A stretch of 64,000 bases of DNA from Escherichia phage S127 BCL3. Within the stretch, counting starts at the first letter, position 1; each line of letters opens with the position of its first letter. The notes under the pieces were generated by a model. The model was given only the letters and a program-made list of their open reading frames with translations. It was not told the origin of the DNA and did not search any database. Shown here piece by piece: positions 23,222-25,419 of the stretch. The position numbers were made by a program, and so were the translations under genes. The stretch lies in the sequence record OQ626344; one strand, written 5' to 3'.

Positions 23222-23597
23222 TCATCAGATCTGCCATAGCGTCACCAACGAAGAGGACAACCACGTCGTTGACAGCGTCAGCATCATCTTTATTGATGTT
23301 GCTGAATTTGGGGCACACTGCAATGACCATATAGACCCCGTTGCCCAACTGAACAGTGCGTGTAGTGCACATTAGTGTGGTGCTTGTGCCTTCTTTAAAG
23401 GCAAATCCTTGCAGACGTTCTTCCAGAGAGTCACCTGTGGATTTCAACAAGGCAAGATCGCCCAATGCGTAGGTAGTGTCCTCATAGGTCAGTCCAGAGG
23501 TCAATGTTGCCTTCCCATCAGAAACTATAATAACCCCATCGGCACCGTCAAGCTCAGAGGCTTCAAAGATATTAATATCCCAAATGTTTTTCATCAC
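23193..23597 (-). CDS. hypothetical protein
   Basis: 134-aa ORF. Confidence 0.5.
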   Translation of the reverse strand: MMKNIWDINIFEASELDGADGVIIVSDGKATLTSGLTYEDTTYALGDLALLKSTGDSLEERLQGFAFKEGTSTTLMCTTRTVQLGNGVYMVIAVCPKFSNINKDDADAVNDVVVLFVGDAMADLMNAGEAANED

Positions 23598-23914
23598 GCC
23601 TCCTCGTCATCTAATGAGTTGAAGATTTCACCGAAGTATTCTAAGACTTCCAGCTCACGGGTGGTGCAGAAAACACAGTCCCCGTTGTCATCTTCGATAA
23701 CGGCCTCTTTACCAAGAACATCCACTTCAAATTCGTCGTTTAACAGAACGGAACCTGTGTAAACTTTATCTGCCGTGCAGTCCCGAAAAGCAGAGTCCTT
23801 CTCCAAGTAGTCTGGCTTAACCTTGGCTTTAATTCGTTGATATTGTTTGGTCATTGCTGTGGTCCCCTTTCGTTTTGATAGGGCCATTATATTAGGCCCT
23901 ATCGCTATTGTCAA
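23594..23914 (-). CDS. hypothetical protein, paralog of 23918..24172
   Basis: Shares AF(R/K)DCT ... GD(C/S)V(F/W)CT motifs with neighbour. Confidence 0.5.
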   Translation of the reverse strand: MTIAIGPNIMALSKRKGTTAMTKQYQRIKAKVKPDYLEKDSAFRDCTADKVYTGSVLLNDEFEVDVLGKEAVIEDDNGDCVFCTTRELEVLEYFGEIFNSLDDEEA

Positions 23915-23917
23915 GTA

Positions 23918-24172
23918 TTAATGCTCAGGTTTTACAAAAACTACTTCGTTAACAGTGCACCAGACAGAATCTCCTTCATCATCTTTAAAGGTAAGACACT
24001 GGGCTGAGTTTTCCAACTCATCGAGCTCTTCTTGTGATAAATAGGTCCCTTCTTCCAGAAGGGCTTTTACCAGGGGATTCTCACAAAACTCTGCTTCATA
24101 AATTGCACCGACTGTGCAATCTTTAAAAGCTCGGTCATTTGCAACGCATTCTGGCTTCAAAGTAATTTTCAT
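23918..24172 (-). CDS. hypothetical protein, paralog of 23594..23914
   Basis: 84-aa ORF with same motif pattern. Confidence 0.5.
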   Translation of the reverse strand: MKITLKPECVANDRAFKDCTVGAIYEAEFCENPLVKALLEEGTYLSQEELDELENSAQCLTFKDDEGDSVWCTVNEVVFVKPEH

Positions 24173-24247
24173 CTTGGCGGTCTCCTTAACTATTTAAAAT
24201 CAACGCTCTGTCTGTGTGGGGTATCTTACATCTACCCCAACTTGTTG

Positions 24248-24646
24248 TCAACGACTATTTTCAATCATCCACCAAGGATCGAGATAAGTTTGTTGACTTT
24301 TTGCCCACTGGCAAACTTCATTGTACATCTGGATCTCTTTGTCCGTCAGTTCACGAATAGGCTCATCTATACCCTCATTTTTGTGGTAATCCCAGTCGGC
24401 ATCGATTTCCCACAACCATGACTTACGATCTTCACGTTTACGCACACAGAAGTCCCCAGGACGGCCTGCCAGTGCATTTAAGAACTCGTTCTCCGCTCGC
24501 TCCTGGAGAATACTAAGGAGCAAAACGTTGGAGCATGACCGTAAAATGTGCTTCAGCTCACAATCATCGATCTCAACTTCAATACGTTGCTTAACTGTGT
24601 GGGTACCTTTTACTAACATTCTACCTCCTCTAGACGAACTCTGCAA
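24248..24646 (-). CDS. hypothetical protein
   Basis: 132-aa ORF. Confidence 0.5.
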   Translation of the reverse strand: MQSSSRGGRMLVKGTHTVKQRIEVEIDDCELKHILRSCSNVLLLSILQERAENEFLNALAGRPGDFCVRKREDRKSWLWEIDADWDYHKNEGIDEPIRELTDKEIQMYNEVCQWAKSQQTYLDPWWMIENSR

Positions 24647-24824
24647 GGGTTGTGTTGTTCACTGCACCGCAGTAGATGGAGTATCCCAACCCGTTAGGGT
24701 GTAGAAACCACGGCACACCTTGATCATCCTTCACGTATACATCTCCATTTTCCGTAAAGGGCCAATACTCTTCTCCAAGGGTAAAATACCTACTCATACC
24801 TTCAGCCAGATACTTTACTTTCAT
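24630..24824 (-). CDS. small protein, member of tandem paralog trio
   Basis: Shared pattern D..G..W(F/Y)L ... Y.IYG with the two following ORFs. Confidence 0.45.
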   Translation of the reverse strand: MKVKYLAEGMSRYFTLGEEYWPFTENGDVYVKDDQGVPWFLHPNGLGYSIYCGAVNNTTLAEFV

Positions 24825-25048
24825 AGATCCTCTTCAACAGCTACAAACTTGGCAAGTAGGGTGGTTCCATAGATATGATACTCACCGTTTGCCAGATGGG
24901 AGATAAACCAGGCAACACCGTCCTCGTCTTCGATCATATTGTTTCTGCGATCCTCGTCGTAATAAACCTTGTAGACCTTACCTTCTTCAAAGAATGATAG
25001 GTCTGTCATCTTCTCTTCTACAAATGTCGCTTTAACCAAAGTTGTCAT
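24821..25048 (-). CDS. small protein, member of tandem paralog trio
   Basis: 75-aa ORF; 4-nt overlaps with neighbours. Confidence 0.45.
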   Translation of the reverse strand: MTTLVKATFVEEKMTDLSFFEEGKVYKVYYDEDRRNNMIEDEDGVAWFISHLANGEYHIYGTTLLAKFVAVEEDL

Positions 25049-25419
25049 TGATCTGCCTCCTTCTTGTTGAGCCGGAACACTGCAATAATAGCATTTCCAA
25101 GATGCAGTGTCAAATCATTTCCCAGATACCACAGCATCCCACGGTCATCTTTAATGAAAGGGTAACAATCCGGTGCCTTCCAGACATTATACACTTTGCC
25201 GACCTGAAAGAAATCAGGCCCTGTTGGAATTTTAGTACCGGGCCATACTTGGGACACCTGAACGCATTCTACCTGCATAATGACAGGGATAGTCATGGAG
25301 GTAAATGTTTTTGTTGGTTCTACTACCATAAAAGTCTCCTCTCTGTCTAACAACACTTCCGTGTGTTGATAGTTTACATTAGTGACAATCGCCCCAGTTA
25401 CGACCGCACAAGTATTCAC
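25045..25419 (-). CDS. small protein, member of tandem paralog trio
   Basis: 124-aa ORF; C-terminal half matches paralog pattern. Confidence 0.45.
   Translation of the reverse strand: MNTCAVVTGAIVTNVNYQHTEVLLDREETFMVVEPTKTFTSMTIPVIMQVECVQVSQVWPGTKIPTGPDFFQVGKVYNVWKAPDCYPFIKDDRGMLWYLGNDLTLHLGNAIIAVFRLNKKEADQ

Follow-up and report, generated by a model that had tools for sequence, protein, structure and literature searches.

Duplicated small genes occupy an accessory slot in the replication module of rV5-like phages

What do two sets of duplicated small genes do beside the DNA polymerase gene of a phage, and how has selection acted on them? The locus lies in a stretch of 64,000 nucleotides (nt) from Escherichia phage S127 BCL3 (sequence record OQ626344), hereafter the window. 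A first-pass annotation had described two tandem families of small proteins there, here called A (A1 and A2) and B (B1, B2 and B3), as typical of a host-takeover or anti-defence arsenal under diversifying selection. Our analysis shows that the region is an accessory-gene slot inside the Vequintavirus replication module, and that of its ten small genes six code for small β-barrel proteins of one domain each, mostly acidic, which stem from old tandem duplications. As judged by alignment, A1/A2 and B1/B2/B3 are real and significant paralogue sets, which arose by tandem duplication and then diverged deeply.

The window shows negative GC skew at ~20-42 kb, where every long open reading frame (ORF) is on the minus strand. 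The order on that strand is primase-helicase, DNA polymerase, ten small genes and a 457-residue ORF resembling single-stranded DNA-binding protein (SSB). The genes referred to below are:

Primase-helicase: 28215-30293, minus strand; C-terminus FEDDETPF.
DNA polymerase: 25379-28156, minus strand; 925 amino acids (aa), intact.
B3: 25045-25329, minus strand; 94 aa; rV5 gp219/ORF224; phrog_12922; ATG start with Shine-Dalgarno sequence AGAGGAG.
B2: 24821-25048, minus strand; 75 aa; rV5 gp218/ORF223; phrog_12623; predicted six-stranded small β-barrel.
B1: 24630-24824, minus strand; 64 aa; rV5 gp217/ORF222; phrog_12802; ATGA overlap with the B2 stop.
C: 24248-24619, minus strand; 123 aa; phrog_6273; unrelated gene between the B and A families.
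A2: 23918-24172, minus strand; 84 aa; rV5 gp215/ORF220; phrog_12544.
A1: 23594-23854, minus strand; 86 aa; rV5 gp214/ORF219; phrog_11936; acidic C-terminal tail.
F: 22638-22883, minus strand; 81 aa; rV5 gp211; phrog_4927; the window's fourth B-superfamily member, outside the coordinates of the first-pass annotation.
SSB-like ORF: 20964-22337, minus strand; 457 aa; phrog_4477 (unknown function); DDDIPF tail.

The paralogy within both families is significant by alignment. A1 and A2 match each other in BLASTP (E 8e-9 over 77 residues; E 5e-6 among all 426 window ORFs) and in hhalign (P 6e-8), and their Smith-Waterman score is 90 compared to a shuffle mean of 27 (Gumbel p 1e-7). For the B pairs the shuffle p values are 1.6e-6 (B2-B3), 5e-5 (B1-B2) and 5e-4 (B1-B3), and the hhalign P values are 3.4e-5, 3.9e-5 and 1.7e-3, respectively. 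Nine invariant columns in B1, B2 and B3 are spread over the whole domain of ~55 residues. The motifs AF(R/K)DCT and GD(C/S)V(F/W)CT are present in A1 and A2 as the first-pass annotation had it, and D..G..W(F/Y)(L/I) is found in the B family; Y.IYG, which had been ascribed to all three B proteins, is confined to B1 and B2, whereas B3 has LTLHLG. The control genes C, D, E and G show no comparable similarity in hhalign, and C has no significant similarity to A, B or F. The marks of tandem duplication followed by divergence are also in place: the copies are adjacent and on the same strand, B genes overlap by ATGA, paralogues are mutually similar with 29-35% identity, and copy number varies, with five B genes in a distant relative described below compared to three here. 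Neither hhalign nor shuffles give a significant direct relation of the A to the B family, and a single superfamily for all five proteins is therefore not claimed.

The coordinates and orientation required some revision. Three of the five ORFs stand as annotated, and two had been over-extended by mechanical start calling: in 23594..23914 the TTG start at 23914 coincides with the beginning of a TTGACA -35 box, and in 25045..25419 the GTG start at 25419 falls within the polymerase gene. The corrected ATG starts, at 23854 for A1 and 25329 for B3, both have Shine-Dalgarno sites and agree with the gene calls in the phages Gotham, Murica, FV3 and NHEP1 (A1 is called as a 261-nt gene in Gotham and Murica, and B3 as a 285-nt gene in relatives). 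B3 starts 49 nt past the polymerase stop and carries an N-terminal extension of ~35 aa ahead of the B-family β-barrel domain. ATGA overlaps join B3 to B2 and B2 to B1, and A1 overlaps the next gene, D, by 1 base. Shine-Dalgarno sites, synonymous divergence (dS) well above nonsynonymous divergence (dN) in 12 genomes and gene calls in more than 100 genomes identify the A and B genes as real. The small barrel proteins have isoelectric points of 4.1-4.6, with B3 (6.5) as the exception. With the minus strand as the coding strand of all these genes, the DNA polymerase gene precedes the cluster, which is therefore downstream (3') of it and not upstream, as had been stated.

The window belongs with Vequintavirus (rV5-like) phages, with 98% identity to Escherichia phage NHEP1, and ~115 other Vequintavirus genomes are 88-97% identical to the region. 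We calculated Nei-Gojobori dN/dS for orthologues from 11 related genomes and the window, i.e. 12 Vequintavirus genomes. The values are 0.017 for B3, 0.163 (~0.16) for B2, 0.10 for B1, 0.10 for A2, 0.12 for A1 and 0.14 for F. Amino-acid changes, charge swaps included, are concentrated in the β2-β4 hairpins; omega stays at or below 0.33 even in the segments that vary most, a post hoc choice. Essentially all genomes of the genus (~115) carry the block, with synteny retained. In the 12 genomes dN/dS does not exceed 1 overall or regionally, and among the ~115 there is no presence/absence polymorphism. Given the low dN/dS and the presence of the block in all complete genomes of the genus, the proposed diversifying selection is not supported within Vequintavirus.

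Some individual records deserve mention. In rV5_ev168 the B3 orthologue has an 11-residue in-frame duplication, CHPFIKEKAPN, in the β2-β3 loop; it is not a one-off error, because the corresponding cluster (P0033) has 15 member sequences on 6 contigs. In phage Alma, frameshifts truncate B3, A2 and F. Three frameshifts in 3 kb look like a sequencing or assembly error and not like pseudogenes, so they were not used as evidence of dispensability. Sixteen GenBank records (MG0656xx) named "Campylobacter phage", host C. jejuni, are ~90% identical to this block, and these labels may reflect host mislabelling or contamination of the deposits.

Outside the genus, relatives are scarce. Few turned up in an exhaustive profile search over 1.84 billion representatives. 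When B2, the B alignment and the A alignment were used in word-indexed protein searches, all matches were Vequintavirus orthologues, and tblastn of B2, A2 and B3 against 50,697 phage records gave matches within the genus only. Two proteins were also run in tblastn, with no match for P0089 and matches to the genus only for P0080; a pattern scan of IMG/VR found two close loci only. P0080, one of the few relatives from the exhaustive search, sits on a divergent Vequintavirus-like phage contig of 136.8 kb (L015) in the NCBI bacterial assembly GCA_012894635.1. From polymerase to SSB-like gene, the slot of L015 contains orthologues of B3, B2, B1, C, A2, A1, D, E, F and G. It has two additional B2-like paralogues (6709-6924 and 6908-7111), which brings the B copies to five, and three inserted genes, one of them Ead/Ea22-like and located between B3 and B2. 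Compared with the window, the polymerase C-terminus is 93% identical, the SSB-like protein 86% and E 94%; B2 (50%), A1 (43%) and F (57%) are less similar. The dN of the small genes is 0.21-0.55 compared to 0.05 for the polymerase, a 4- to 10-fold higher amino-acid divergence; synonymous sites are saturated, which makes dN/dS against L015 uninformative. In the other Vequintavirinae genera Mydovirus, Seunavirus and Certrevirus the polymerases are 55-62% identical to that of the window, and no A or B genes follow the polymerase gene. The copy number and inserts of L015, the absence of A and B genes from three genera and the fast divergence together imply that these behave as accessory genes over long distances. 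By these sequence comparisons the A and B genes are fast-evolving and variable in copy number between lineages, yet fixed and constrained within the genus.

Among the further matches of the exhaustive search are phage proteins in which the B domain, characterized by the motif FWTxGKEYxV...DDxG...W, is repeated in tandem two to five times. These repeat-domain families correspond to phrog_3523, phrog_3249 and phrog_10169, which cross-match in PHROG scans. They share their motif with the B proteins and differ in architecture: there the domain is repeated 2-5 times per polypeptide or fused to DUF3310, whereas here each copy is a separate gene. In the fusion protein P0088, which also has a match in BFVD, a B-type domain is joined to DUF3310, labelled "nucleotide kinase" in PHROGs. 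A profile built from the repeats only and run against the 426 window ORFs detects B3 (4.8e-11), B2 (3.7e-10), B1 (1.5e-9) and F (6.2e-5). The repeat proteins had themselves been found with a B profile, which is a caveat to these values; F had no part in the selection. In hhalign against the repeats, the B family scores P 5.6e-16 and F P 3.7e-5. On this profile evidence, a domain superfamily found across phages includes B1, B2 and B3 and, at a greater distance, F. Pfam DUF7244 is a marginal match to the superfamily, with scores below threshold. Two large proteins that scored in the search were set aside as probable repeat-driven false similarity, namely P0077 (1743 aa, a β-helix protein with InlB-like repeats) and P0082 (1963 aa). 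The motif DDxGDxxxC is common to F and the A family. Alignments of the A family to F (P 0.0018) and to the repeats (P ~0.0015) cover 40-47 columns and are suggestive, though not significant after multiple testing.

The model of B2, built from a six-sequence alignment of paralogues and orthologues, has a predicted local distance difference test (pLDDT) score of 90.3 and is an all-β six-stranded barrel. With ~65 residues and the topology of PDB entry 9AXB, this predicted barrel resembles Gp54 of Escherichia phage Bas11. Gp54, a small and non-essential protein to which no function has been assigned, binds the antitoxin domain of CapRelSJ46 directly and thereby activates that defence, whereas close homologues from SECphi27, Bas5, Bas8 and Bas10 do not trigger CapRelSJ46 (Zhang et al., Nature 2024, PMC11578894). 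The likeness extends to size (66 aa compared to 64-75 aa for B1 and B2), acidity and location, since the gene for Gp54 also sits with small accessory genes in a virulent coliphage. A hand alignment would place F-x-x-G and G-x-x-W at equivalent points of β2 and β4. The settings differ in that Bas11 belongs to Drexlerviridae and the phage here to Vequintavirinae, and in that three adjacent B copies, together with F, are found here next to the polymerase. Foldseek searches of BFVD with the B fold retrieve small uncharacterised proteins by the dozen, mainly from T1-like coliphages and often with several from one genome. The B set is best described as small accessory phage barrels with the predicted fold of Gp54, and this match in fold is the sole lead towards a function.

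The model of A2 is an SH3-like five-stranded barrel with a two-helix insertion between β2 and β3, and A1 aligns to A2 without the helical insertion. The predicted A fold differs from other SH3-like small β-barrels in the two-helix insertion of A2 and in the invariant cysteines of the DCT and (W/F)CT motifs; no specific family was matched.

The following sequence elements accompany the two families:

A1 promoter: 23886-23914, minus strand; TTGACA-17-TATAAT, a perfect sigma-70 consensus (12/12).
A2 promoter: 24223-24251, minus strand; TTGACA-17-TAAGAT, sigma-70-type, annotated as P220 in the rV5 record.
Hairpin: 25351-25368, minus strand; CAACAC-ACGGAA-GTGTTG, between the polymerase stop and the ribosome-binding site of B3.

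Both sets of promoter hexamers are conserved in 12 genomes, and such sigma-70-type promoters are compatible with early expression. The -10 box of the A1 promoter lies in the loop of a 9-bp inverted repeat at 23877-23903 (minus strand), with arms GATAGGGCC/GGCCCTATC and a folding energy of -17.4 kcal/mol; rV5 retains this stem by compensatory change (GATAGGACC/GGTCCTATC). The -10 box of the A2 promoter also lies in a hairpin loop (24225-24247, minus strand; 7-bp arms TGGGGTA/TACCCCA), the stem of which is not conserved in most relatives. The hairpin between polymerase and B3 has undergone a compensatory double change to CAGCAC/GTGCTG in four of 11 relatives. As no T-run follows, it is not a classic terminator and may be an RNA processing or stability element. 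The 49-nt gap between the two genes contains no terminator-like site, so B3, B2 and B1 are probably co-transcribed with the polymerase, and the ATGA overlaps suggest that the B genes are translationally coupled. Elsewhere in the window, at 6600-19300 (minus strand), near-consensus sigma-70 promoters stand densely before small genes, and a GC-rich hairpin, for example GGCGGGAAAACTTCCCGCC, comes after many of them; the pattern resembles an early region of repeated promoter-hairpin cassettes.

What, then, could these proteins do? We tentatively favour the view, at somewhat less than an even chance, that the barrels are protein-binding modules and that their partners are host proteins, for takeover, defence evasion or as decoys; the estimate covers the two together. 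A protein-binding role is suggested by the lack of catalytic motifs, by an acidity too high for nucleic-acid binding and by the fact that the studied member of the B fold binds a protein. The barrels would act stoichiometrically, each paralogue being specialised for a different host or phage partner in early or middle infection. Purifying selection would hold them in place within the genus, and between lineages they would come and go and diverge quickly.

Several results weigh against this view. No Pfam match is above threshold, and all PHROG matches, best and secondary, are of "unknown function". No annotated anti-defence or host-takeover family was matched in these scans, which were general Pfam and PHROG scans and not a dedicated anti-defence library. 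No transcriptome for Vequintavirus was found in the literature searched, and the literature on rV5 and Vequintavirus held nothing useful on the expression or named functions of these genes. Strict conservation and low dN/dS across the genus are unusual for arms-race counter-defence genes, and would suit a housekeeping role in replication equally well. The comparison with Gp54 also has limits. No sequence homology between B and Gp54 was detected: hhalign gives E 0.71, and 9AXB is absent from a profile search of PDB sequences up to E 10. Gp54 matches phrog_7421 alone in the PHROG scan, which differs from the PHROGs of the B proteins, and the shuffle p values for Gp54 are 0.03 with B2, 0.25 with B3 and 0.72 with B1. 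Bas11 scanned with the B-superfamily profiles has marginal matches only (E 1e-3 to 1e-2), Gp54 itself not among them. The predicted link between B and Gp54 is therefore one of fold only, and a fold does not fix a function.

A replication role is possible, though we regard it as doubtful. Here the barrels would be replisome accessory or adaptor proteins that bind polymerase, primase-helicase, SSB-like protein or enzymes of nucleotide metabolism and thereby tune replication. The slot lies between polymerase and SSB-like gene, with only the non-terminator hairpin in the 49 nt before B3, the genes are universal and under strong purifying selection within the genus, and the domain fused to DUF3310 in P0088 would fit as well. 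Against it stand three Vequintavirinae genera in which the polymerase is orthologous but is followed by neither A nor B genes, the copy number that differs between lineages, and an amino-acid divergence 4-10 times as high as in the polymerase and the SSB-like protein. Gp54, the relative in structure, is dispensable (PMC11578894).

The proposal of the first-pass annotation, an anti-defence arsenal under ongoing diversifying selection in which each paralogue inhibits a different host immune system, is unlikely. It would account for small, acidic, duplicated proteins with probable early or middle expression, for the concentration of changes and charge swaps in the β2-β4 hairpins within the genus, and for the variable copy number in the distant relative L015; the authors of the Gp54 study also speculate that Gp54 may inhibit another defence system (PMC11578894). 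Nevertheless, dN/dS of 0.02-0.16 per gene and at most 0.33 in post hoc segments, the lack of presence/absence variation among ~115 genomes and the absence of an annotated anti-defence match in Pfam or PHROGs argue against an ongoing arms race.

More speculative still, and improbable in our estimate, is the idea that the B proteins, with F and possibly A1 and A2, form with Gp54 one very old and fast-evolving phage superfamily of "ligand" barrels, whose usual task would be to bind zinc-finger-like or similar sensor domains in host proteins of immunity or stress and so neutralise them. If this were true, each Vequintavirus would have four to six such binders as a constant set, aimed at different targets, and sensors triggered by the barrels may have evolved in some hosts, in the way that Gp54 triggers CapRelSJ46. 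Finally, chance similarity, or ORFs that are not genes, is already refuted: BLASTP alone finds nothing for B1 and B2 and little for B1 and B3 (E 7e-4 over 12 residues), but shuffle and profile statistics are significant, the outside profile matches all three B proteins at 1e-9 to 5e-11, reading frames are conserved with dS far above dN, and there are Shine-Dalgarno sites and a confident fold prediction.

Some further features of the window and its relatives lie outside this argument. The DDDIPF end of the 457-aa ORF is a tail of the E. coli SSB type, and together with the end of the primase-helicase, also acidic and closing in Phe, it suggests T7-style contacts within the replisome. The DNA polymerase gene, intact here, is split by an HNH homing-endonuclease insertion in rV5, FV3 and CM1; in navn it is also split, with no HNH gene annotated in the gap. 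A second paralogue pair in the window encodes tail fibres (phrog_4465; 57875-58921 and 59934-60974, both minus strand), with 43% identity over 356 residues.

In T4- and T5-type phages, short genes without assigned function stand in series behind host-type promoters of their own, and the content of these series varies between related genera. The block described here resembles such small early or accessory clusters in its short genes, host-type promoters and variability between genera, and differs from typical hyperplastic regions in that its content is invariant throughout the genus. The A/B block is a sound yet ordinary case of duplicated hypothetical phage genes. Its wider interest lies in the barrel itself. 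Among proteins with this rare fold, only Gp54 of Bas11 has been studied so far, and every rV5-like phage is now predicted to have the fold in three neighbouring copies, plus F. The fold is also linked to a sequence superfamily in which multi-repeat proteins occur as well as fusions to DUF3310, a domain labelled "nucleotide kinase", and this provides a wider comparative set for working out what the barrel does.

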